Below, one piece after another: positions 5,208 to 27,888 of a stretch of DNA of 34,932 nucleotides. Position 1 is the first letter of the stretch, and every line of letters begins with the position of its first letter. The translations under genes were made by a program, and so were the position numbers. The notes below the pieces were generated by a model. That model saw only the letters and a list, made by a program, of their open reading frames with translations. It did not search any database and had not been told where the DNA came from. The DNA is from a virus (taxonomy: Duplodnaviria > Heunggongvirae > Uroviricota > Caudoviricetes): the IMG/VR virus record IMGVR_UViG_2718218452_000007, one strand, 5' to 3'.

Positions 5208-5479
5208 GTATTCGTATTGAAATTGGCGAACGTTATGTCGTTACCAGTGACAGCTTTCAGTTTATTCTCCACGAGAAAAAGAGAGCGGAAAGCGGTAAAA
5301 ACGCCGGTCAGGAATGGCTGGCGGTGGTTGGTTATTACCCGAAATTAAGCCAGCTCGTTTCCGGCCTGATGCATCACGATATTCTGACCGGAAGCGCAAA
5401 GTCTTTTGCTGATTTAAACGCGCAGGTTGAGCAACTCAGCAAGCGTTGTTCAGAGGCTTTTGGCTCATATGGCCGTTAA
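5204..5479 (+). CDS. Early protein (P2 orf83 position)
   Basis: 91-aa ORF, translationally coupled to neighbours. Confidence 0.7.
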   Translation: MSIRIEIGERYVVTSDSFQFILHEKKRAESGKNAGQEWLAVVGYYPKLSQLVSGLMHHDILTGSAKSFADLNAQVEQLSKRCSEAFGSYGR

Positions 5480-7745
5480 AGCCTCTGGGCGTTTTGTCCC
5501 TCCGTCAGCATTTGCCGCAGGCACCGGTAAGACGTTTACCGGTGCTTATGCATGGAACGCGCCACGCGAGGCTGTCGGGCGCGAAAGACCCCTTACACGT
5601 GACGAGATGCGTCAGGTGCAAGGTGTTTTATCCACGATTAATCGCCTGCCTTACTTTTTGCGCTCGCTGTTTACTTCACGCTATGACTACATCCGGCGCA
5701 ATAAAAGCCCGGTGCACGGGTTTTATTTCCTCACATCCACTTTTCAGCGTCGTTTATGGCCGCGCATTGAGCGCGTTAATCAGCGCCATGAAATGAACAC
5801 CGACGCGTCGTTGCTGTTTCTGGCAGAGCGTGACCACTATGCGCGCCTGCCTGGAATGAATGACAAGGAGCTGAAAAAGTTTGCCGCCCGTATCTCATCG
5901 CAGCTTTTCATAATGTATGAGGAACTCTGCGATGCCTGGGTGGATGCGCATGGCGAGAAAGAATCGCTGTTTACGGATGAGGCGCAGGCTCACCTGTATG
6001 GTCATGTTGCTGGCGCTGCACGTGCTTTCAATATTTCCCCGCTCTACTGGAAAAAATACCGTAAAGGGCAGATGACCACGAGGCAGGCATATTCTGCCAT
6101 TGCCCGTCTGTTTAACGATGAATGGTGGACTCATCAGCTTAAAGGCCAGCGTATGCGCTGGCATGAGGCGTTACTGATTGCTGTCGGGGAGGTCAATAAA
6201 GACCGTTCTCCTTATGCCAGTAAACATGCCATTCGTGATGTGCGTGCGCGCCGCCAGGCAAATCTGGAATTTCTTAAATCGTGTGACCTTGAAAACAGGG
6301 AAACCGGCGAGCGCATCGACCTTATCAGTAAGGTGATGGGCAGTATTTCTAATCCAGAAATTCGCCGGATGGAGCTGATGAACACCATCGCCGGTATTGA
6401 GCGTTACGCTGCCGCAGAGGGTGATGTGGGGATGTTTATCACGCTGACCGCGCCGTCAAAGTATCACCCAACACGTCAGGTCAGAAAAGGCGAAAGCAAA
6501 ACCGTCCAGCTAAATCACGGCTGGAATGATGAGGCATTTAATCCAAAGGATGCGCAGCGTTATCTCTGCCGTATCTGGAGCCTGATGCGCACGGCATTCA
6601 AGGATAATGATTTACAGGCCTACGGTTTGCGTGTTGTTGAACCACACCACGACGGAACGCCGCACTGGCATATGATGCTTTTTTGTAATCCACGCCAGCG
6701 TAACCAGATTATTGAAATCATGCGTCGCTATGCGCTCAAAGAGGATGGCGACGAAAGAGGAGCCGCGCGAAACCGTTTTCAGGCAAAACACCTTAACCGG
6801 GGCGGTGCTGCGGGATATATCGCGAAATACATCTCAAAAAACATCGATGGCTATGCACTGGATGGTCAGCTCGATAATGATACCGGTAGGCCGCTGAAAG
6901 ACACAGCTGCGGCTGTTACCGCATGGGCGTCAACGTGGCGCATTCCGCAATTTAAAACGGTTGGTCTGCCGACAATGGGGGCTTACCGTGAACTACGCAA
7001 ATTGCCTCGTGGCGTCAGCATTGCTGATGAGTTTGACGAGCGCGTCGAGGCTGCACGCGCCGCTGCAGACAGTGGTGATTTTGCGTTGTATATCAGCGCG
7101 CAGGGCGGGGCAAATGTCCCGCGCGATTGTCAGACTGTCAGGGTCGCCCGTAGCCCGTCGGATGACGTTAACGAGTACGAGGAAGAAGTCGAGAGAGTGG
7201 TCGGCATTTACGCGCCGCATCTCGGCGCGCGTCATATTCATATCACCAGAACGACGGACTGGCGCATTGTTCCGAAAGTGCCGGTCGTTGAGCCTTTGAC
7301 TTTAAAAAGCGGCATCGCCGCGCCTCGGAGTCCTGTCAATAACTGTGGAAAGCTCACCGGTAGTGATGCTTCGTTACCGGCTCCCACACCTTCTGAGCAC
7401 GCTGCAGCAGTGCTAAATCTGGTTGATGACGGTGTTATCGAATGGAATGACCCGGAGGTCGTGAGGGCGCTCAGGGGAGCATTAAAACACGGTCTGAAAA
7501 CACCAAATCGTCAGCAAAGAAACGGAAGTCCGTTAAAAACACATGAAATTGCACCGTCGGCCAGACTGACCCGGTCGGAACGAATGCAAATCACCCGTAT
7601 CCGCGTTGACCTTGTTCAGAATGGTATCAGGCCTCAGCGATGGGAGCTTGAGGCGCTGGCGCGTGGGGCAACCGTAAATTACGACGGGAAAAAATTCACG
7701 TATCCGGTCGCTGATGAGTGGCCGGGATTCTCGTTATCCATTTGA
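5469..7745 (+). CDS. A: Replication initiation endonuclease A (rolling-circle nickase)
   Basis: Long ORF with HUH-like HWHMM motif and active-site tyrosine pair (GYIAKYISKNIDGY). Start is uncertain: ATG 5469, or in-frame TTG 5460 or ATG 5427. Confidence 0.88.
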   Translation: MAVKASGRFVPPSAFAAGTGKTFTGAYAWNAPREAVGRERPLTRDEMRQVQGVLSTINRLPYFLRSLFTSRYDYIRRNKSPVHGFYFLTSTFQRRLWPRIERVNQRHEMNTDASLLFLAERDHYARLPGMNDKELKKFAARISSQLFIMYEELCDAWVDAHGEKESLFTDEAQAHLYGHVAGAARAFNISPLYWKKYRKGQMTTRQAYSAIARLFNDEWWTHQLKGQRMRWHEALLIAVGEVNKDRSPYASKHAIRDVRARRQANLEFLKSCDLENRETGERIDLISKVMGSISNPEIRRMELMNTIAGIERYAAAEGDVGMFITLTAPSKYHPTRQVRKGESKTVQLNHGWNDEAFNPKDAQRYLCRIWSLMRTAFKDNDLQAYGLRVVEPHHDGTPHWHMMLFCNPRQRNQIIEIMRRYALKEDGDERGAARNRFQAKHLNRGGAAGYIAKYISKNIDGYALDGQLDNDTGRPLKDTAAAVTAWASTWRIPQFKTVGLPTMGAYRELRKLPRGVSIADEFDERVEAARAAADSGDFALYISAQGGANVPRDCQTVRVARSPSDDVNEYEEEVERVVGIYAPHLGARHIHITRTTDWRIVPKVPVVEPLTLKSGIAAPRSPVNNCGKLTGSDASLPAPTPSEHAAAVLNLVDDGVIEWNDPEVVRALRGALKHGLKTPNRQQRNGSPLKTHEIAPSARLTRSERMQITRIRVDLVQNGIRPQRWELEALARGATVNYDGKKFTYPVADEWPGFSLSI
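7320..7339 (+). other. Probable replication origin (A-protein nick region) inside gene A
   Basis: gcgcctcggagtcctgtcaa matches the P2 ori nick region as I recall it, in the 3' part of A. Confidence 0.45.
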
Positions 7746-8277
7746 GTAAAAACACAACTAATTTGGTATGCAGAGCGACTCTAAGGCAGAAGAAGGTCAA
7801 TAGTATACTGAAATAGAAGACTAAATTATATTGAATCGTTAGCATGTAATTTAACTCAAATATAAAAGAGCATCTAATTTGGCTAAGAAAATCATTGTGA
7901 GTGACCTTCTGTCGAAGTATAACTCATCGTGAGCCAAGTAATAAAAATAATCAGTTAATGTTTCAAAAATCACAGGGTGGGTGCTTCTTGTGTCAAGCGG
8001 ATTAATTCTCATGTGTCATAGATGCTTATTTTGTCTGATGGCGGTGTTATTCACTAATATGGCCATGAGGTTTCGGGAAAATCCTGGGGGGTTAATGCAT
8101 GGTATAAGAAAACAAAATCATCAGTAAAGAAGATAGTTCCTTGAAATAGAGTAAGATGTTGTGACTGGCGTGCAAAGAGAGTGTAAGCCCTCTGATGAAA
8201 AATCATTTATTTTGTTATGGGTATGTAGGTTCTATTTTGTAATTTATACCCCCACTTATAAACGCAGGGGTAGGAGA

Positions 8278-8544
8278 TTATTTTCTGTTGAGTTTATTGA
8301 TGAACAATAATACTACTGATACAAAAATAGCGGAAAAAATATAATAAATGGTTTCTGTATAGCCACCTAGATTAAGATGTTTTATTATCTTGGTAATACC
8401 TGAGTTTTCAAAGAGTGGTTTCGTTATCACAGGTGAGAGAGATGTTGAGGCAACTAAGCCAAACGTTATAGTAATATTCCTGTTGCTTATTTCGTTTTTG
8501 CTTGCATCTTTTAGTTTTATAACTTGCATTCTTGATTTTAACAT
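8278..8544 (-). CDS. Small protein with C-terminal transmembrane anchor (88 aa), second gene of cargo operon
   Basis: ORF 31 nt downstream of the 438-aa gene; hydrophobic IYYIFSAIFVSVVLLFI then basic tail; AT-rich; weak Shine-Dalgarno. Alternative start at Met6. Confidence 0.55.
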   Translation of the reverse strand: MLKSRMQVIKLKDASKNEISNRNITITFGLVASTSLSPVITKPLFENSGITKIIKHLNLGGYTETIYYIFSAIFVSVVLLFINKLNRK

Positions 8545-8575
8545 TTTGGCAAGGTTCTTTCGAGCCAGTTCTAAA

Positions 8576-9892
8576 TCATTTGACTGGACGTTGTTGGATA
8601 TAATGTTTTGTATTTCTCCATATTTTTTTTGAAAAGACTCTTAACCATTCCTCAAATTGAATGATTTCCTCTTGGGTTGTGGCTAGGCCAATATGGTTGT
8701 TCTCATTCTTGACTTGTTCTATTTTGGATTCGTAAAAAAAAGATATAAAATCTCTCAGGTCACTTTTTACTTGGTTGTCCCATATGATATTTGATTCGGA
8801 ATACGAATCTGTGATGTTTTTAAATTCTACTTTTTTTGAACATAGTGTGAGGGTTGCTCCTTGCTCTGAATAATAATTAAAGTCATTAAATACTCTGAGG
8901 TCGATGTGATTTTGCTTGTCTTTTTCATCATTAAAAAAAGTGCTCTTGCTTAATAGTGAAGATATTAATTGTTTGTTGTATTTACTATTTTTATTGGCGT
9001 TGCTTTTTTGGTTGTCATGGCTAAAAATATAAATATTAGGTTTCCCTTGCCATCCATGGTAGAAGTCTGTTGTTTTTCTGCCAAATAAAATATCTTTTAG
9101 TGTTTTTTTTCTTAATGTGTTGTGAATTATTGCTATTGTGGTGCGAGCGATATCGCTTAAGCTATTTTGTAGTTCAAATTCTTTTGCGTAGTTAATATAT
9201 TTTCCATTGATTGTTAAGTTGTCGCAAGATATATCTCTTGATTTTACTTCCACCTGTTTGATTTGTGTTGACAATAATCTCTTGGCTATAACTCGCTGGA
9301 CCAAATTCATTGGTGATAAGTCAAGCTCAATGACTCTGTTTGTATACTCCGTACTGGCAATGATTGAACTGCTGGCATTAAAAGGGAGATTTATTTTTGT
9401 GTCAATGAAATAATTTAATTCATTATCATAACGTTCTTCGTCGATGAAAGTTATATGGGATATGCCATTTCGATATAGGCGTATTATTGGAATTAAGAAA
9501 AACTCATTTTCTCCGCAACCAAATAAAATGGGTTTTTGACAACAAATAATGTTGTTGTAATATGATTGCTCTGTGATATGGAATAGTTTGTTTTCTGATA
9601 GTCTCAAGTTGATACAATTGTAGAATGAATGGATTGTTAAATCGCATAAGCCGGGAGAGTTTAAAAAATTAGCATCACCCAAATTGACGCTAACTCCATT
9701 ATTCTCGTATTTCATTGATAACTTTGTTGATAACACATTACAGCCTGAAAGACACTTAAAAGTGTTATCAGGGGTTAAAATCGCCAAAAACATACCTGTT
9801 TTGATTAATTGCGATGCAGTTTCCTCCGCATTGTCATATGTTGGTGACTGGGTTGTGTAAGTATGCCAGACTGTTCCTTTTTTGATCTGCAT
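8576..9892 (-). CDS. Hypothetical 438-aa protein, first gene of cargo operon at the P2 tin/old position
   Basis: Long clean ORF in very AT-rich DNA with AGGA Shine-Dalgarno 6-7 nt upstream; N/K/I/Y-rich; no Walker A, so not an Old-type ATPase; no family recognised. Confidence 0.75.
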   Translation of the reverse strand: MQIKKGTVWHTYTTQSPTYDNAEETASQLIKTGMFLAILTPDNTFKCLSGCNVLSTKLSMKYENNGVSVNLGDANFLNSPGLCDLTIHSFYNCINLRLSENKLFHITEQSYYNNIICCQKPILFGCGENEFFLIPIIRLYRNGISHITFIDEERYDNELNYFIDTKINLPFNASSSIIASTEYTNRVIELDLSPMNLVQRVIAKRLLSTQIKQVEVKSRDISCDNLTINGKYINYAKEFELQNSLSDIARTTIAIIHNTLRKKTLKDILFGRKTTDFYHGWQGKPNIYIFSHDNQKSNANKNSKYNKQLISSLLSKSTFFNDEKDKQNHIDLRVFNDFNYYSEQGATLTLCSKKVEFKNITDSYSESNIIWDNQVKSDLRDFISFFYESKIEQVKNENNHIGLATTQEEIIQFEEWLRVFSKKIWRNTKHYIQQRPVK

Positions 9893-10057
9893 GTTTTTCC
9901 TTCTGGATTTTTCTAGAACACAATTCTCAATATTGTATGGTTACGTTGCATGATAATGCATTTGTTTCAAAATATCTTTTTGATGAGCTTCAGGTAGTGT
10001 TGGTGCGGGTTAAAGATAGTGATTCAACTGCATTCAAACTGCCCCATGAAGCGGGCG

Positions 10058-10076
10058 GGCGAGGCGGGGAAAGCAC
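10058..10076 (+). other. cos site (19-nt cohesive end sequence)
   Basis: ggcgaggcggggaaagcac, the P2 cohesive-end sequence as recalled, in a GC-rich tract next to Q. Confidence 0.7.
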
Positions 10077-10218
10077 TGCGCGCTGGCGGTGGTGCTGATT
10101 TTATTTTTTCAGCGTCTCAGCGCGTCGTGACGGCGTTTGGATTGTGCGCCGGGGCGTTGGTGTGTCTGCGGGGTGTTTTGTGCGGTGGTGAGCGTGTGAG
10201 GGCGTGATGACGGGGTGT

Positions 10219-10245: not shown

Positions 10246-11280
10246 TCAGCCGTTGTCGGTGTCCAGTGAGTAGTTTTTAAAGCGGATGACCTCCTGACCG
10301 AGCCAGCCGTTTATCTCGCGGATCCTGTCCTGTAACGGGATAAGCTCATTGCGGACAAAGACCTTTGCCACTTTCTCAATATCACCCAGCGACCCGACGT
10401 TCTCCGGCTTGCCGCCCATCAACTGAAAAGGGATGCGGTGCGCGTCCAGCAGGTCTGCGGCGCTGGCTTTTTTGATATTAAAAAAATCGTCCTTCGTTGC
10501 CACTTCACTGAGCGGGATAATTTTAATGCCGTCGGCTTTCCCTTGCGGGGCATAGAGAAACAGATTTTTAAAGTTGTTGCGGCCTTTCGACTTCACCATG
10601 TTTTCGCGGAGCATTTCGATATCGTTGCGATCCTGCACGGCATCAGTGACGTACATGATGTATCCGGCATGTGCGCCGTTTTCGTAATACTTGCGGCGGA
10701 ACAGCGTGGCCGACTCATTCAGCCAGGCAGAGTTAAGGGCGCTGAGATATTCCGGCAGGCCGTACAGCTCCTGATTAATATCCGGCTCCAGCAGGTGAAA
10801 CACGGAACCGGGCGCGAAGGCTGTCGGCTCGTTGAAGGACGGCACCCACCAGTAAACATCCTCTTCCACACCACGGCGGGTATATTTTGCCGGTGAGGTT
10901 TCCAGTCTGATGACTTTACCGGTAGTGCTGTAACGCTTTTCCAGAAACGCATTACCGAACACCAGAAAATCCAGCACAAAGCGGCTGAAATCCTGCTGGG
11001 ACAGCCACGGATGCGGGATAAATGTCGAGGCCAGAATATTGCGTTTGACGTAAATCGGGGAGCTATGATGCACGGCAGCACGCAGGCTTTTTGCCAGACC
11101 GGTAAAGCTGACCGGTGGCTCATACCATCTGCCGTTACTGATGCATTCGACGTAATCCAGAATGTCACGGCGGTCGAGTACCGGCACCGGTTCGCCAAAG
11201 GTGAATGCCTCCATTTTCGGGGCGCTGGCGGTCATTTTTTTTGCCGCAGGTTGCAGTGTTTTCCCTTTTTTCTTGCTCAT
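10246..11280 (-). CDS. Q: Portal protein
   Basis: 344 aa, start overlaps the P stop; matches P2 Q as recalled. Confidence 0.92.
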   Translation of the reverse strand: MSKKKGKTLQPAAKKMTASAPKMEAFTFGEPVPVLDRRDILDYVECISNGRWYEPPVSFTGLAKSLRAAVHHSSPIYVKRNILASTFIPHPWLSQQDFSRFVLDFLVFGNAFLEKRYSTTGKVIRLETSPAKYTRRGVEEDVYWWVPSFNEPTAFAPGSVFHLLEPDINQELYGLPEYLSALNSAWLNESATLFRRKYYENGAHAGYIMYVTDAVQDRNDIEMLRENMVKSKGRNNFKNLFLYAPQGKADGIKIIPLSEVATKDDFFNIKKASAADLLDAHRIPFQLMGGKPENVGSLGDIEKVAKVFVRNELIPLQDRIREINGWLGQEVIRFKNYSLDTDNG

Positions 11281-18981: not shown

Positions 18982-19426
18982 GTTTAAGCGTTTTGAAGAC
19001 CGGCTGACCGGGCTGATTGAATCGCTGTCACCGTCAGGGCGTCGGCGACTGAGCGCCGAACTGGCGAAACGTCTGCGTCAGAGTCAGCAGCGTCGGGTGA
19101 TGGCACAGAAAGCCCCGGACGGCACACCCTACGCGCCACGTCAGCAGCAGAGCGCCAGAAAAAAGACCGGTCGCGTTAAGCGAAAAATGTTTGCGAAACT
19201 TATCACCAGTCGTTTTTTGCATATCCGCGCCAGCCCGGAACAGGCATCAATGGAATTTTACGGCGGGAAGTCGCCGAAAATCGCCAGTGTGCATCAGTTC
19301 GGTCTGTCGGAAGAAACCCGGAAAGACGGTAAGAAAATTGATTATCCGGCGCGTCCTCTGCTCGGCTTTACCGGTGAGGATGTGCAGATGATTGAAGAGA
19401 TTATCCTGGCTCACCTTGAGCGTTAG
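18974..19426 (+). CDS. S: Tail completion protein S
   Basis: 150 aa, overlaps the R end. Confidence 0.88.
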   Translation: MNEFKRFEDRLTGLIESLSPSGRRRLSAELAKRLRQSQQRRVMAQKAPDGTPYAPRQQQSARKKTGRVKRKMFAKLITSRFLHIRASPEQASMEFYGGKSPKIASVHQFGLSEETRKDGKKIDYPARPLLGFTGEDVQMIEEIILAHLER

Positions 19427-19456
19427 TTTTATCCAGGCAGAGGCTGATGCGCAATT

Positions 19457-19491
19457 AAACATTGAGCGGCCATGCTGGTCGCTCAATGTTT
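19457..19491. terminator. 12-bp perfect hairpin between convergent S and the cargo gene (likely bidirectional terminator)
   Basis: aaacattgagcg / loop gccatgctggt / cgctcaatgttt; flanking T/A runs are weak. Confidence 0.45.
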
Positions 19492-19497
19492 AGAGGT

Positions 19498-20283
19498 TTA
19501 TGAGTGATTTTTATTTGATGCTTTGTATTCTACAACCTTCTTATTGGCGTAAAGGAATTTTGTATATGACAGGAATATAACCAGACCTGAAATGAAATAG
19601 ATGAGGGATATTATTAATAATGCTTTTTTTTGGCTGTTATTATCTTTAATCTCCTGACTTAACCATTCCGAGTCCTCCTCGTTTAGCTGTAAGAGCTTAT
19701 TGCAGGCGATCTCAGGAAGTGTGTCTTTTATAAATACGTTTCGTAGCCTCTTGCAATCGGCAAGGCTATAAGTTTTATTGAATTCAACTGTTTTATTGTT
19801 GAAGGATAAAAGAACTTTGTCACTATAAACATAGTACATCATATTTTTATATGGTATGCCTATGGCATCTCTTACTATAACGGATTGTTTGTTGTGTATA
19901 TAACATGCGAAGAGAATATAAATAATGCTGGACAGAATTACAATTATTGTTTTAATTATGTGTGGTGGTTTTGTTATGTCACCCCAGAAGCGAGTAAGAA
20001 AAAAATACGATGTTTTTAGTTTTCCATCAATCAGCCCCTGCTGTATCATTCTCACATCTTCGATGCCTGATACATTGATTCCGTTAATTATTTTAAATAG
20101 TTGAATGTCGCGCCATTTTTTGTCGAGCATTTTTAACTTTCTGTCTGAATACTCAAAATTGAAATGATGTGCAATAAACCTCATAAGATTACTTTTACCA
20201 AAGGTAATAAATGTTAATGCTATTAATAAAAATAGATACAAAGAGATAAACCACCACGCATTAGTCACATTATCACTGAACAT
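19498..20283 (-). CDS. Hypothetical 261-aa integral membrane protein (cargo at the P2 orf30 position)
   Basis: AT-rich ORF with GAGGAGA Shine-Dalgarno; three hydrophobic helices (WWFISLYLFLLIALTFITF, IIKTIIVILSSIIYILFACYI, ALLIISLIYFISGLVIFLSY); opposite strand to the late operons. Confidence 0.75.
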   Translation of the reverse strand: MFSDNVTNAWWFISLYLFLLIALTFITFGKSNLMRFIAHHFNFEYSDRKLKMLDKKWRDIQLFKIINGINVSGIEDVRMIQQGLIDGKLKTSYFFLTRFWGDITKPPHIIKTIIVILSSIIYILFACYIHNKQSVIVRDAIGIPYKNMMYYVYSDKVLLSFNNKTVEFNKTYSLADCKRLRNVFIKDTLPEIACNKLLQLNEEDSEWLSQEIKDNNSQKKALLIISLIYFISGLVIFLSYTKFLYANKKVVEYKASNKNHS

Positions 20284-20300
20284 TACGCTCTCCTCGAATG

Positions 20301-20319
20301 TTGTATGGTCGTTCTACAA
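20301..20319 (+). promoter_or_regulatory. Late-promoter activator element upstream of V
   Basis: TTGT-N11-ACAA, a perfect 4-bp dyad; same pattern as at 13121 and 26607. Confidence 0.45.
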
Positions 20320-20366
20320 ATGAATCCAGATAGCATAACTTTTATATATTGTGCAATCTCACACGC

Positions 20367-21002
20367 ATGAACACTCTCGCAAATATTCAGGAACTCGCGC
20401 GCGCACTGCGCAACATGATTCGTACCGGCCTTGTCGTCGAAACCAACCTTAAAGCCGGTCGCTGCCGTGTGCAGACCGGTGGCATGTGCACTGACTGGCT
20501 TCAGTGGCTGACCCATCGTGCCGGACGTTCGCGCACATGGTGGGCACCTTCCGTGGGGGAGCAGGTGCTGATTCTGGCTGTGGGCGGTGAACTCGACACG
20601 GCGTTCGTTCTGCCGGGGATTTATTCCGGCGATAACCCCGCGCCGTCTGCGTCGGCGGATGCCCTGCATATCCGTTTCCCTGACGGGGCGGTGATTGAGT
20701 ATGAACCCGAAACCAGTGCACTCACGGTAAGCGGAATTAAAACGGCCAGCGTGACGGCTTCTGATTCTGTTACTGCCACGGTGCCGGTGGTCATGGTGAA
20801 AGCATCAACCCGCGTCACCCTGGACACACCGGAGGTGGTCTGCACCAACAGGCTGATTACCGGCACGCTGGAAGTGCAGAAGGGCGGGACGATGCACGGC
20901 AACATTGAACACACCGGCGGTGAACTCTCATCAAACGGTAAGGTACTGCATACCCATAAACACCCCGGCGACAGCGGCGGCACAACCGGGAGCCCTCTAT
21001 GA
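20367..21002 (+). CDS. V: Baseplate spike protein
   Basis: 211 aa from ATG 20367 (MNTLANIQ...); tracked ORF starts at a TTG 6 codons earlier. Confidence 0.9.
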   Translation: MNTLANIQELARALRNMIRTGLVVETNLKAGRCRVQTGGMCTDWLQWLTHRAGRSRTWWAPSVGEQVLILAVGGELDTAFVLPGIYSGDNPAPSASADALHIRFPDGAVIEYEPETSALTVSGIKTASVTASDSVTATVPVVMVKASTRVTLDTPEVVCTNRLITGTLEVQKGGTMHGNIEHTGGELSSNGKVLHTHKHPGDSGGTTGSPL

Positions 21003-22792: not shown

Positions 22793-25024
22793 ATGAGCAC
22801 AAAATTCAGAACCGTTATCACCACTGCTGGTGCAGCAAAGCTGGCAGCGGCAACCGCGCCGGGAGGGCGGAAGGTCAACATTACCACGATGGCCGTCGGG
22901 GATGGCGGTGGTAAATTGCCTGTCCCGGATGCCGGACAGACCGGGCTTATCCACGAAGTCTGGCGACATGCGCTGAACAAAATCAGCCAGGACAAACGAA
23001 ACAGTAATTATATTATCGCAGAGCTGGTTATTCCGCCGGAGGTGGGCGGTTTCTGGATGCGTGAGCTTGGCCTGTACGATGATGCTGGAACGTTAATTGC
23101 CGTGGCGAACATGGCTGAAAGTTATAAGCCAGCTCTTGCCGAAGGCTCAGGGCGTTCGCAGACCTGCCGCATGGTCATCATCGTCAGCAGTGTGGCCTCA
23201 GTGGCGCTGACCATTGACACCACAACGGTGATGGCAACGCAGGATTACGTTGATGACAAAATTGCAGAACATGAACAGTCACGACGTCACCCGGACGCCT
23301 CGCTGACCGCCAAAGGTTTTACTCAGTTAAGCAGTGCGACCAACAGCACGTCTGAAACACTCGCCGCAACACCAAAAGCGGTAAAAGCAGCATATGACCT
23401 TGCTAACGGGAAATACACTGCACAGGACGCCACCACAGCGCGAAAAGGCCTTGTCCAGCTCAGTAGTGCCACCAACAGCACGTCTGAAACGCTCGCCGCA
23501 ACACCAAAAGCGGTAAAAGCAGCATATGACCTTGCTAACGGGAAATACACTGCACAGGACGCCACCACCGCGCGAAAAGGCCTTGTCCAGCTCAGTAGCG
23601 CCACCAACAGCGATTCTGAAACGCTTGCGGCAACGCCAAAGGCGGTTAAGACAGCGTATGACCTTGCTAACGGGAAATACACTGCACAGGATGCCACCAC
23701 AGCGCGAAAAGGTCTTGTCCAGCTCAGTAGCGCCACCAACAGTGATTCTGAAACGCTGGCTGCAACACCAAAAGCGGTGAAGTCTGCCTATGACAATGCT
23801 GAAAAACGTCTTCAGAAAGATCAGAACGGCGCGGATATTCCTGATAAAGATCGCTTCCTGAGTAACATTAATGTTTACAGCAAAGGCGAGGTGGATAAGA
23901 AAAAAGGAATGCGGCTGTACGTATTTAACGCGCCGTCTAATGCTGTTGGTGGAAAGTGGTATCCAGTTATTTTCCGGCGTTCCACTGGTAGCACTGGCGA
24001 ACTGGCTTCCAGAGTGGTTATTACAACCACATCTGCCGGTGGTGATTACGCAATGAATAACTGCGAATTTAATGGAATGGTAATGCCCGGAGGTTGGACT
24101 GATCGTGGTTCATATGCAGCAGGTTATTTTTCGACATATCAGACTAATGAGCGCGCAATCCATTCCATTGTAACAAGCCTGAAAGAAGATGATGTATGCA
24201 GCGTTTTTTACGTTGAAGGCAGGGCTTTTCCTGTGCGAGTTTTTGCCGAAGAAGGGCTAACGGTTATTGTTCCAACTCAGGATTATACCGTCGGTCAAAC
24301 AACATATAAGTGGGGAGCAACTAATCCCGCGACAGAAAGCACGAACGCACAAGCCATTCTGGATTTTAACAATGGGCGAGGGTTTTATTGTTCTCACTCA
24401 ATATTCGGTATTAATGCCATTTTTAGCGGAAATCTGGGGATTGGAACGGCTAATGCCCTGGGTGGAAATTCAATAGTTTTAGGAGATAACGATACCGGGT
24501 TTAAACAAAATGGTGATGGGGTGCTGGATGCTTATGCTAATGGTGTGCATGTATTCCGCTTTATAAATGGTTCAGCAAGATCATTAAAGGGTATTCAGGC
24601 TGGGGAAAGTAAGTTCTTCACACTTTCAAGTGCAAATACCGCTGCCCGTAATGCATCATTTAACTTGTGGGGAAATTCGTCAAGACCAACTGTTGCAGAG
24701 CTTGGTGATGATTCAGGCTGGCATTTCTATAGTCAGCGAAATACAGATAACTCGGTGATATTTGCTGTAAACGGTCAGATACAACCAAGCAACTGGGATA
24801 ACATTGATTCCCGATATGTGAAAGATGTTCGGCTTGGCTCACAGCAATATTATGGTGTGAACAACTGGCAAACATGGAACTTTCAGTGCCCTTCAGGTCA
24901 TGTATTGTCTGGTATAAATGTTCAGGATACAGGTTCCAACTCCGCCGATAATATTGCGGGTGTTTATTACAGACCCGTTCAAAAGTATATAAATGGCACA
25001 TGGTATAATGTAGCGAGCGTTTAA
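22793..25024 (+). CDS. H: Tail fiber protein H (N-terminus P2-like, repeats, divergent distal domain)
   Basis: 743 aa; conserved N-terminus [20 protein letters not shown]; four 44-aa tandem repeats; AT-richer C-terminal half. Confidence 0.9.
23326..23810 (+). repeat. Tandem 132-bp repeat (about 3.7 copies) inside H
   Basis: caacagcacg recurs at 23341 and 23473; encodes LSSATNS(T/D)[12 protein letters not shown](A/T/S)[23 protein letters not shown] x4; generates spurious ORFs on both strands. Confidence 0.85.
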
Positions 25025-25025
25025 T

Positions 25026-25553
25026 ATGATGCACTTAAAGAACATAAAAGCGGGTAACACTAAAACACTGGAACAGTATGAGTTAACAAAGAAGCATGGA
25101 GTCATCTGGCTTTACACTGAAGACGGGAAAAACTGGTATGAGGAAGTGAAGAACTTTCAGTCAGACACAATAAAGATTGTTTACGACGAGAATAATATAA
25201 TTGTCGGCATCACCCGAGATGCTTCAACGCTTAACCCTGAAGGTTTTAGCGTTGTCGAGGTTCCTGATATTACTGCCAACCGACGTGCTGATGACTCAGG
25301 TAAATGGATGTTTAAGGATGGTGCCGTGATTAAGCGGATTTATACGGCAGACGAACAGCAGCAACTGGCAGAATCACAAAAGGCAACTTTGCTTTCCGAA
25401 GCCGAATCCGTGATTTTGCCGCTGGAGCGCGCTGTCAGGCTGAATATGGCAACAGATGAGGAACGCAGCCGACTGGAAGCATGGGAACGCTACAGCGTTC
25501 TGGTCAGCCGTGTGGATCCTGCAAATCCTGAATGGCCGGAAATGCCGCAATAA
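25026..25553 (+). CDS. G: Tail fiber assembly chaperone
   Basis: 175 aa immediately after H. Confidence 0.85.
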
Positions 25554-25774
25554 GTTGTATAAGCTCTGGTGTGAGATTACATATCTATGGCACAGAGTAA
25601 AGCCTAATCTGACAGGCCGCTCTGTGTCTGGAGTAGATTTTAGTAAAGCATTATTTTATTAGTGCAAATTCTAAACAATACATTTTATGTATATGATATC
25701 CTGCGGACTTTAATGATTTGGTTTAGGCTAACCAGATAACACTGAAGGAATATTTTTGATAATTAAGGTGCGGT

Positions 25775-26368
25775 ATGTTTACTAAGCGACGATTAAAAAA
25801 TATTAACTGGGAGGCAAGTTCAGTGATTCTTGCTATGGTTCTCTTTGCTGGAAATATATTTTATACAAATCATCGTGATGATATAAGCATGGAGGCTGAG
25901 AGAGACAGTATCAGAACAATGTTTGCATATGAAATCGCTAATAACCATCGCGCTCTCACCTTTCTTGATAAAACGAGAAATATTGGCTTTGACGAAAATT
26001 CGGAGCATTTTGTTGGCGAGCCTTTTGCCATTAATGTCAAATCATCAGGGGGACCTCGCTTACAGATTGCATTAAACCAGACTGATAAAGTGTTTAAATC
26101 ATACTTCAGCGAATTAAGTAAGCTTGATAAAGAGGATGTTACTCTTCTTATGGACTATTACCATGAGCAAAGCATCCTGCTGGAGCGTGTAAAATCTACG
26201 TTACAGAAGATGAAAAGTGGTAATGATATTAAAGTTGATATTGATGGTTACTTATTAGAAGAACACTTCATGAATGAGCTTAATCTTTCTAATATTTTGC
26301 TTAAACGCTATAGCTATTTATTATCACAGCACGCTAAAGAACATAAAACAAAAGATTTACATAATTGA
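25775..26368 (+). CDS. Hypothetical 197-aa protein with N-terminal membrane anchor (cargo at the P2 Z/fun position)
   Basis: AT-rich ORF with AAGGTG Shine-Dalgarno; one hydrophobic helix near the N-terminus (SSVILAMVLFAGNIFY), then a charged soluble domain. Confidence 0.72.
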   Translation: MFTKRRLKNINWEASSVILAMVLFAGNIFYTNHRDDISMEAERDSIRTMFAYEIANNHRALTFLDKTRNIGFDENSEHFVGEPFAINVKSSGGPRLQIALNQTDKVFKSYFSELSKLDKEDVTLLMDYYHEQSILLERVKSTLQKMKSGNDIKVDIDGYLLEEHFMNELNLSNILLKRYSYLLSQHAKEHKTKDLHN

Positions 26369-26563
26369 TAATCTGCTAATGGTTATTCATGGGGTAACTA
26401 TGTTTTATATGTAATCCAGCTCAGATGAATTATTGATTCTGGATAATAACCGCAGAGCGGCATATACCCTGACAGGCAAATGTCCGCTTCTTGCTCAAAG
26501 CAGACTGTCAGATTTGATAACTTTTGGGCTATGTAAACTGTCAGTCGGAAAATGAGTGTGTAC

Positions 26564-26590
26564 AAATCAGGACAGGCGGGCGAATTGCCC
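26564..26590 (+). terminator. Intrinsic terminator upstream of the FI late promoter
   Basis: ggcgggc-gaatt-gcccgc followed by attttcttt. Confidence 0.6.
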
Positions 26591-26606
26591 GCATTTTCTT
26601 TATCTG

Positions 26607-26625
26607 TTGTTTCATCCACTGACCA
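26607..26625 (+). promoter_or_regulatory. Late-promoter activator element upstream of FI
   Basis: TTGT-N11-ACCA, about 80 nt upstream of the FI start. Confidence 0.45.
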
Positions 26626-26697
26626 GCCAGGTCAAATAGCGTCTCATGCTCTGCACAACAGAAAATAGTTGCACCCATTAACCACGGAGTTAAACGG

Positions 26698-27888
26698 ATG
26701 AGTGACTATCATCACGGCGTGCAGGTGCTGGAGATTAACGACGGCACCCGCGTCATTTCCACCGTATCCACAGCCATTGTCGGCATGGTCTGCACGGCCA
26801 GCGATGCGGATGCGGAAACCTTTCCCCTCAATAAACCGGTGCTGATTACCAATGTGCAGAGCGCAATTGCAAAGGCCGGTAAAAAAGGCACGCTGGCGGC
26901 GTCGTTGCAGGCCATAGCTGACCAGTCAAAACCGGTCACCGTTGTTGTACGTGTGGAAGACGGCACCGGCGAAGACGAAGAAACGAAACTTGCGCAGACC
27001 GTTTCCAATATCATTGGCACCACCGACGAAAACGGTCAGTACACCGGACTGAAAGCCCTGCTGGCGGCGGAGTCGGTAACCGGTGTTAAACCGCGTATTC
27101 TCGGCGTGCCGGGACTGGACACCAAAGAGGTGGCTGTTGCACTGGCATCAGTCTGTCAGAAGCTGCGCGCTTTCGGATATATCAGCGCATGGGGCTGTAA
27201 GACCATTTCCGAGGTGAAAGCCTACCGCCAGAATTTCAGCCAGCGTGAGCTGATGGTCATCTGGCCGGATTTCCTCGCATGGGATACGGTCACCAGTACC
27301 ACCGCCACCGCGTATGCCACCGCCCGTGCGCTGGGTCTGCGCGCTAAAATCGACCAGGAGCAGGGCTGGCATAAAACGCTGTCCAACGTCGGGGTAAACG
27401 GTGTTACCGGCATCAGCGCATCCGTCTTCTGGGATTTGCAGGAGTCCGGCACCGATGCTGACCTGCTTAACGAGTCAGGCGTCACTACGCTGATTCGCCG
27501 CGACGGTTTCCGCTTCTGGGGTAACCGTACCTGCTCCGATGACCCGCTGTTCCTCTTTGAAAACTACACCCGCACCGCGCAGGTGCTGGCCGACACGATG
27601 GCTGAGGCGCACATGTGGGCGGTGGACAAGCCCATCACCGCAACGCTGATTCACGACATCGTTGACGGCATCAATGCCAAATTTCGTGAGCTGAAAACAA
27701 ACGGCTATATCGTGGATGCGACCTGCTGGTTCAGCGAAGAATCCAACGATGCGGAAACCCTCAAGGCCGGAAAACTGTATATCGACTACGACTATACCCC
27801 GGTGCCTCCTCTCGAAAACCTGACCCTGCGCCAGCGTATTACCGATAAATACCTGGCAAATCTGGTCACCTCGGTTAACAGCAATTAA
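26698..27888 (+). CDS. FI: Contractile tail sheath protein
   Basis: 396 aa; GGAG Shine-Dalgarno. Confidence 0.92.
   Translation: MSDYHHGVQVLEINDGTRVISTVSTAIVGMVCTASDADAETFPLNKPVLITNVQSAIAKAGKKGTLAASLQAIADQSKPVTVVVRVEDGTGEDEETKLAQTVSNIIGTTDENGQYTGLKALLAAESVTGVKPRILGVPGLDTKEVAVALASVCQKLRAFGYISAWGCKTISEVKAYRQNFSQRELMVIWPDFLAWDTVTSTTATAYATARALGLRAKIDQEQGWHKTLSNVGVNGVTGISASVFWDLQESGTDADLLNESGVTTLIRRDGFRFWGNRTCSDDPLFLFENYTRTAQVLADTMAEAHMWAVDKPITATLIHDIVDGINAKFRELKTNGYIVDATCWFSEESNDAETLKAGKLYIDYDYTPVPPLENLTLRQRITDKYLANLVTSVNSN

Follow-up and report, generated by a model that had tools for sequence, protein, structure and literature searches.

The 34,932-nucleotide (nt) stretch of viral DNA studied here (IMG/VR record IMGVR_UViG_2718218452_000007, herein referred to as the window) is a P2-like prophage that carries an integrase gene at 1897–2910, replication gene A at 5427–7745, and portal gene Q at 10246–11280. 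Between its genes G and FI, in the gap that the P2 annotation gives as the site of Fun (the Z/fun position), the plus strand encodes a protein of 197 amino acids (aa) that starts at an ATG codon and occupies 25775–26368. G, the tail-fiber assembly gene (25026–25553, plus strand), matches PF02413 (Caudo_TAP) at 3.2e-35 and is annotated as GpG in PhiR44_1, and FI, the tail-sheath gene (26698–27888, plus strand), matches Pfam sheath domains. The gene for the 197-aa protein is the cargo of a self-contained single-gene cassette (a moron) at the Z/fun hotspot, which spans 25629–26481 on the plus strand, has a guanine-plus-cytosine (GC) content of 34%, and recurs at 96–100% identity in 202 Escherichia coli genomes. 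A preliminary description of the window had noted an open reading frame (ORF) of this length between G and FI, the AT-rich DNA around it, and its coincidence with Z/fun. Our analysis bears out all of this: the GC content is 0.342 in the cassette and 0.347 in the ORF against 0.46 in G, 0.565 in FI, and 0.508 in the whole window, and related phages hold unrelated DNA at the same place. Z/fun is one of the two principal sites of variation in P2-like prophages and one at which validated defense systems have been found; the cassette described here is common, compact, and present in several types of hotspot.

To delimit the cargo, the G–FI gap was aligned with those of P2, P2-EC58, P22H4, DC1, and a Yersinia phage, and the cargo differs in all of them. 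Backbone identity extends on the left until ~25628 and is found again on the right from ~26482 to FI; the left flank (25554–25628, plus strand) is conserved P2 backbone in the alignments with P2 and P2-EC58. The cassette of the window is 100% identical to that of E. coli strain C7 (NZ_CP010240.1), in which the encoded protein is WP_001443367.1. Searched with 25640–26480, complete E. coli genomes yielded the cassette in 202 of 5,426, at the identity given above and in every case on the chromosome. These genomes hold 208 copies, which compares with 1,961 P2-like FI places in 1,692 genomes, so that about one in ten FI loci carries a cassette that has neither an assigned domain nor a paper devoted to it. 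All five of the copies inspected (three chromosomal, two phage) lie between G and FI. The 202 carriers come from humans, cattle, pigs, chickens, and wastewater and show no obvious niche.

Both borders of the cassette coincide with palindromic repeats. At the right junction (26469–26511), the core palindrome GTCCGCT-TCTTGCTCAA-AGCAGAC occupies 26482–26505 and is followed by TGTCAG; a palindrome of the form GTCYGYT-N10-ARCRGAC stands at the right cargo border of all P2-like phages examined, with a chance expectation of 0.04 per shuffled 35-kb window. The left junction repeat (25606–25640, from repeat analysis and the alignments) is degenerate in the window (AATCTGACAGGCCGCTCTGTGTCTGGAGTAGAT), and in P2, P2-EC58, P22H4, and DC1 the left palindrome reads GTCCGCTCTGTGCCAwGAGCGGAC. 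The two palindromes also border the same gene on an Enterobacter cloacae IncFII plasmid (locus L007; ~5791, an approximate match, and 6606) and in a Pantoea genomic island (locus L009; 4785 and ~5705, the latter an approximate match), and homology to the window ends there. Further occurrences were located at 92 and 1743 of the P2-EC58 locus (L001), at 1406 and 3004 of L051, and at 3005 of L050. Such repeats are annotated as "left inverted repeat" and "right inverted repeat" in the GenBank record of P2-EC58 (AJ512683; Nilsson, Karlsson, and Haggard-Ljungquist 2004), and this class of feature is therefore already known. The border palindromes are likely to serve as crossover sites for the exchange of Z-site cargo and, being common to P2 backbones and to the plasmid and island copies, provide a concrete handle on how this cargo is swapped.

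The gene brings its own ribosome-binding site, as the preliminary description had proposed: a Shine–Dalgarno sequence, AAGGTG (25765–25770, plus strand), precedes the ATG by 4 nt and is retained, as AAGGAG, by the diverged Pantoea and Enterobacter copies. Two database records, those of the phages SIDE7 and AC1 (L014 and L015, 1470–2015), start the gene at an internal methionine and give a protein of 181 aa; we consider this start to be wrong because it would cut the conserved membrane segment NINWEASSVILAM. About 140 nt of upstream DNA travel with the gene into both the Pantoea island and the E. cloacae plasmid, as does a noncoding 3′ tail (26369–26468, plus strand), which gave no Rfam match and contains no conserved ORF. 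The Rfam search of 25400–26800 returned only a sub-threshold match to a snoRNA, which we dismissed.

How the gene is transcribed can be proposed from the signals around it. A candidate sigma-70 promoter, TTCTAA-17-TATGAT (25669–25697, plus strand), lies in a stretch that is also conserved in the copy of the Pantoea island, and a consensus promoter scan reported a single site at 25736–25763 (ATAACA-16-GATAAT, 9/12 matches), which is not significant (1 site vs. 5.0 expected). Between G and the ORF, at ~25585–25631, a stable hairpin (−22.6 kcal/mol, z = −3.25) has no adjacent U-run and hence is not a canonical terminator; since no canonical terminator separates G from the ORF, the cargo gene is likely to receive late read-through. 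Transcription would therefore probably combine a weak promoter borne by the cassette with read-through from the late V–G operon, and the cargo transcript would end at the backbone terminator at 26576–26592.

That terminator had been described as lying at 26564–26590, about 200 nt downstream of the gene, and as leaving a long 3′ untranslated region or an unannotated small element in between. The terminator is real, but its coordinates are slightly different: a stem-loop GCGGGC-GAATT-GCCCGC with a 6-bp GC stem occupies 26576–26592 and is followed by the T-run ATTTTCTTT (also given as ATTTTCTTTA), so that the whole element spans 26576–26601 on the plus strand, begins 207 nt past the stop codon, and folds at −14.7 kcal/mol (z = −3.0). 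It is conserved in P2 and P2-EC58 and, because these phages carry different cargo, belongs to the backbone and not to the cassette. The same applies to most of the supposed untranslated region, which is conserved P2 backbone from ~26482 onward and includes a stretch (26512–26575, plus strand) with a second ACTGTCAG repeat in the alignments. Of the small element, the ~100-nt tail that travels with the gene and the junction palindrome remain; the repeat class of the palindrome was already annotated in AJ512683, and the rest is backbone.

Pairwise alignment with the annotated P2 genome places the activator-binding site of the FI promoter pF at 26603–26631 (plus strand) and its transcription start near 26674. 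In P2, the annotated activator-binding site starts directly after the T-run of the same terminator, and in the window the terminator lies ~10 nt upstream of the corresponding position. From this location just ahead of the FI promoter, we conclude that the terminator closes the V-to-G late operon together with any plus-strand cargo. Several phage records (e.g. L002, 2509–2625) annotate a 38-aa minus-strand ORF here, at ~26562–26678 of the window; we treat it as spurious because it overlies the conserved terminator and pF control region and is missing from the P2 reference annotation.

The 197-aa protein matches phrog_3829, a family of "unknown function," along its full length (residues 1–197 of 197; 6.6e-135) and is an exact member of the NCBI "lysogenic conversion protein" cluster WP_001443367.1; it differs from these entries in nothing and is of the same family. 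All 31 of the aligned relatives match phrog_3829, and the homologs form 38 clusters in a large protein database, several of which NCBI likewise names "lysogenic conversion protein." The family is nevertheless small, as a profile search of 1.84 billion representatives returned only 29 proteins. Residues R47, N57, and L117 are invariant among members down to 19–39% identity, and A51, E53, I54, Y110, Y128, Y129, and F165 are nearly so. The pairwise ratio of nonsynonymous to synonymous substitution rates (dN/dS) is 0.05–0.21 wherever dS is unsaturated, indicating purifying selection. Taken together, the 38 clusters, the conserved motifs, and these ratios identify the ORF as a real gene rather than a chance reading frame.

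Beyond this one family, database searches with the protein were unproductive. It matched no Pfam family (E ≤ 1) and no NCBIfam family; PADLOC-DB v2 returned no family at E ≤ 10, for this protein or for a distant homolog; the Protein Data Bank offered nothing usable by sequence or by profile (best E = 0.08); and among the PHROGs only phrog_3829 was matched, with no described exclusion or defense family. Neither a catalytic or nucleotide-binding motif nor a sensor domain was found in the Pfam, PADLOC, and NCBIfam scans. A literature search gave no hit for WP_001443367.1, the NCBI name does not lead to the protein, and we found no paper on the family. The hotspot, its flanking repeats, and its swappable AT-rich cargo are already established, and the protein family is catalogued but uncharacterized.

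The single N-terminal transmembrane anchor of the preliminary description agrees with our predictions. Residues 13–31 form the sole hydrophobic segment, with a borderline mean Kyte–Doolittle hydropathy of 1.42 (relatives, 1.5–2.3), and residues 12–31 (25808–25867, plus strand) are predicted as a membrane helix from hydropathy, from the flanking charges in 41 family members, and from the AlphaFold2 helix. The flank on the N-terminal side is net positive in 41 of 41 members and most members have a neutral or acidic flank past the segment, so the positive-inside rule predicts a topology with the N-terminus in and the C-terminus out. The protein contains no cysteine and so is not a lipoprotein; by our reading, position −3 ahead of the hydrophobic core's end carries no small residue, which speaks against a cleavable signal peptide, and we hence treat the segment as a signal anchor. 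With a wider alignment, AlphaFold gave five mutually consistent models (predicted local distance difference test score, pLDDT, 82.7; predicted template modeling score, pTM, 0.72), in which a single helix covers residues 12–66, short helices lie at 92–116, and long helices at 119–148 and 151–178 complete a compact bundle. As residues 12–66 form one helix, the membrane helix appears to run on into the soluble domain. We infer a bitopic inner-membrane protein with a cytoplasmic N-terminus and a predicted periplasmic four-helix bundle of ~165 residues. A conserved polar stripe (R47, E53, N57) runs along the first helix, and the aromatic residues Y110, Y128, Y129, and F165 are conserved. The modeled fold is a generic helical bundle that points to no particular function; among the closest known systems are the four-helix-bundle sensor domains that chemoreceptors and histidine kinases have in the periplasm (e.g. 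PcaY, 6s18; Tar, 1lih).

Outside the chromosomal Z/fun copies, the gene is present in 13 sequenced phages (tblastn of the 197-aa protein) and in a range of other mobile settings, and it was found alone, with no partner gene, in all of them. In P4-like satellites of Pantoea ananatis and Kosakonia it directly follows the primase gene and lacks the palindromes (L006, 5001–5600; L010, 5001–5591; L047, 6001–6579), a place reported as a minor P4 defense hotspot. A 2026 survey found that P2 and P4 almost never have defense genes in common (PMC13586616); the presence of phrog_3829 in phages of the P2 type as well as in satellites of the P4 type, in different genera, is unusual by comparison. The copy on the E. 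cloacae plasmid adjoins an IS91-type transposase, and genomic-island copies occur in two Pantoea species, one of them a few kb from Rhs/WHH toxin–immunity genes. Homologs in Proteus share 31–32% identity (loci L046, 4172–6585, and L048, 1712–6591); one occupies the portal-side (old/tin) hotspot in a P2-like prophage and adjoins a 593-aa KAP/AAA protein that matches the PADLOC candidate PDC-S49 at 3.9e-88, and that of Proteus mirabilis ATCC 29906 has as its neighbors a putAbiC-domain protein of 471 aa and an HD-domain protein of 510 aa. A profile search of genome contigs with a narrow alignment recovered two loci only. The copy of E. coli 2023CK-01509 (L012, 3684–6817) is split by the IS21-family element ISEc12, and some members of the protein clusters are fragments of 95–99 aa, which together indicate that the gene is occasionally lost.

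What the protein does is the least-supported step of our argument. We tentatively favor, at a confidence somewhat short of an even chance, a role in envelope-level exclusion of other phages. Made by a prophage, P4-like satellite, plasmid, or island, the protein would act at the envelope, most plausibly by hindering delivery of the genome through the periplasm and inner membrane, as superinfection-exclusion proteins do, and not by killing the infected cell. Such proteins, among them Spackle and Imm of T4, gp15 of HK97, lactococcal Sie2009, and SieA of P22, are small single-gene morons, membrane-anchored or periplasmic, devoid of enzymatic motifs and often encoded among tail genes, and in these respects they resemble the protein of the window as it is predicted here. 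It differs from the known types (Imm, Sp, SieA/SieB, Cor, Llp, gp15) in lacking any sequence or profile similarity to them (Pfam at E ≤ 1, PHROGs); its fold match extends no further than "helical bundle," and its envelope location is a prediction from hydropathy, the positive-inside rule, and AlphaFold2. A gene that is always alone needs no partner, and the lack of a catalytic or nucleotide-binding motif and of a sensor domain suits a stoichiometric blocker better than it does an enzyme of abortive infection; these three absences, of partner, sensor, and enzyme motif, are why we prefer exclusion to an abortive effector.

The genomic setting points the same way. Three experimentally validated defense systems come from the G–FI locus (Vassallo 2022), which is listed among the accessory and defense hotspots of P2 and is recognized as a second defense hotspot of P2-like phages. 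Recurrence of the family in other defense-type hotspots (P4-like satellites, the portal side of the Proteus prophage, beside putAbiC, on a plasmid, and in islands) further supports exclusion. The constraint on the protein and the frequency of the cassette in E. coli also count in its favor.

Several observations weigh against exclusion. Rousset et al. made E. coli C lysogenic for four P2-like phages and challenged it with lambda, T4, P1, 186, CLB_P2, LF82_P8, AL505_P2, and T7; sequence records show that two of the four, P2_AC1 and P2_SIDE7, carry the cassette. Protection is reported only for AC1, against lambda and LF82_P8, and a cloned TIR locus reproduced it (Rousset et al.). As the TIR locus explains the protection by AC1, the cassette gave no visible protection against T4, T7, P1, 186, CLB_P2, or AL505_P2, and we read the silence of the text on SIDE7 to mean that this lysogen was not protected against lambda and LF82_P8 either. 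T5 is absent from this eight-phage panel. Either the target phages lie outside the panel, or the gene is silent in these lysogens, or it has another role. Additionally, no PADLOC, Pfam, or PHROG match connects the protein to any family with a known exclusion or defense role, the promoter call lacks statistical support and expression in the lysogen is only presumed, and the membrane segment of this copy has a borderline hydrophobicity, with the positive-inside rule as the sole basis of the topology.

Much of the same evidence could be accommodated by an abortive-infection or membrane-damaging effector, which on infection would oligomerize in or depolarize the inner membrane and kill or arrest the cell, and whose C-terminal domain could equally be cytoplasmic; we judge this unlikely. 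The hotspot evidence applies to it equally, single-pass membrane proteins are common among defense effectors (Rousset 2022), and a distant homolog lies beside a putAbiC-domain protein. Another Z-site cargo, ORF1 of P2-EC58 ("putative lysogenic protein" in AJ512683; L001, 315–1013), matches the RT-associated membrane effector RTasTM of PADLOC at 1.4e-6, and it shares with the gene of the window its site, its flanking repeats, its AT-rich composition, and a hydrophobic start, at a length of its own of ~230 aa. ORF1 differs in lying on the minus strand behind its own annotated promoter and in the PADLOC match itself, the window protein having none, and the two are not detectably related (BLASTP E = 3.5; hhalign probability 0.1%), so that profile comparison counts against an effector role by analogy. 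Comparisons with the Z-site cargo of P22H4 (251 aa) and DC1 (233 aa) by BLASTP and hhalign were likewise empty. An effector is also hard to reconcile with a gene that always stands alone, with no recognizable sensor or enzymatic partner, and with a single, moderately hydrophobic helix, and the negative AC1 and SIDE7 lysogens bear on it as they do on exclusion.

A lysogenic-conversion gene that has nothing to do with phages is a further alternative, which we hold to be improbable: the protein would be an envelope component that benefits the host otherwise, for example in stress resistance, in colonization, or in tolerating a toxin or bacteriocin that acts in the periplasm. P2 hotspots do hold partition systems and a cytolethal distending toxin in addition to defense genes, the predicted periplasmic bundle carries no defense signature, no phage phenotype of the AC1 and SIDE7 lysogens is attributable to the gene, and one Pantoea copy lies a few kb from Rhs/WHH toxin–immunity genes. 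On the other hand, the gene recurs where validated defense genes cluster, is not linked with virulence loci in E. coli, and is carried by genomes that share no obvious niche.

The orientation of the gene, on the same strand as V–G and with no canonical terminator after G, would also suit an accessory of the lytic cycle cotranscribed with the tail genes, such as a spanin-like, lysis-timing, or anti-re-adsorption factor, and i-spanins likewise combine a type II membrane topology with a periplasmic domain that is helical. We regard a lytic role as very unlikely. An Rz-like i-spanin was rejected because seven copies showed no conserved out-of-frame lipobox ORF, whether embedded, overlapping, or adjacent, that could encode an o-spanin partner; the modeled bundle is compact and not an extended coiled coil; the gene is absent from most P2-like phages; and it occurs in satellites, a plasmid, and islands that lack lysis or tail genes.

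The possibility raised by the preliminary description that the protein is a homolog of P2 Fun(Z) (NP_046777.1), which blocks T5, is one that we reject on grounds of homology. The two share the G–FI hotspot, the backbone flanks, and the AT-rich, nonessential nature of the cargo, but Fun has 528 aa to the 197 of the window protein, is encoded on the strand opposite to that of G and FI, and lacks sequence similarity to it (BLASTP E = 2.2), and P2 is not among the 13 phage records found by tblastn. No Pfam or PADLOC model matches Fun itself.

Returning to exclusion, we can formulate a broader proposal, which we consider possible if on the whole doubtful: phrog_3829 may represent a new exclusion-protein family, encoded by single genes, facing the periplasm, and blocking the entry of some group of phages outside the tested panel. 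It would move as a palindrome-bounded cassette among P2 phages, plasmids, and islands and be present in P4-like satellites as well, a rare instance of one accessory gene family common to a type of helper phage and its type of satellite. If exclusion is the function, the family would add a small, single-gene mechanism at the envelope to a catalogue in which cytoplasmic nucleases and NTPases predominate, and it would be relevant to the choice of phages against E. coli lineages that carry the cassette. If the gene proves inert against phages, it would caution against assigning function by hotspot position alone.

Two further AT-rich cargo islands (GC 0.32–0.33) lie in the same prophage, at 7800–10200 and 19200–20400 of the window. 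The first, at the A–Q (old/tin) hotspot, holds a 438-aa minus-strand ORF (8576–9892), and the second, among the tail genes, holds two ORFs on the minus strand, 261 and 128 aa long (19498–20669); none of these ORFs has a significant Pfam match (one sub-threshold match, to DUF6535) or a PADLOC match. Linkage between the Z-site cassette and the type of tail fiber was considered and rejected, as the H genes that accompany the cassette have at least four different lengths (2046, 2232, 2256, and 2760 nt) and the association is hence not strict. In the window, the tail-fiber gene H (22793–25024) contains a 132-nt tandem repeat at 23339–23778, present in 3.3 copies of 92% identity and encoding 44-aa repeats.

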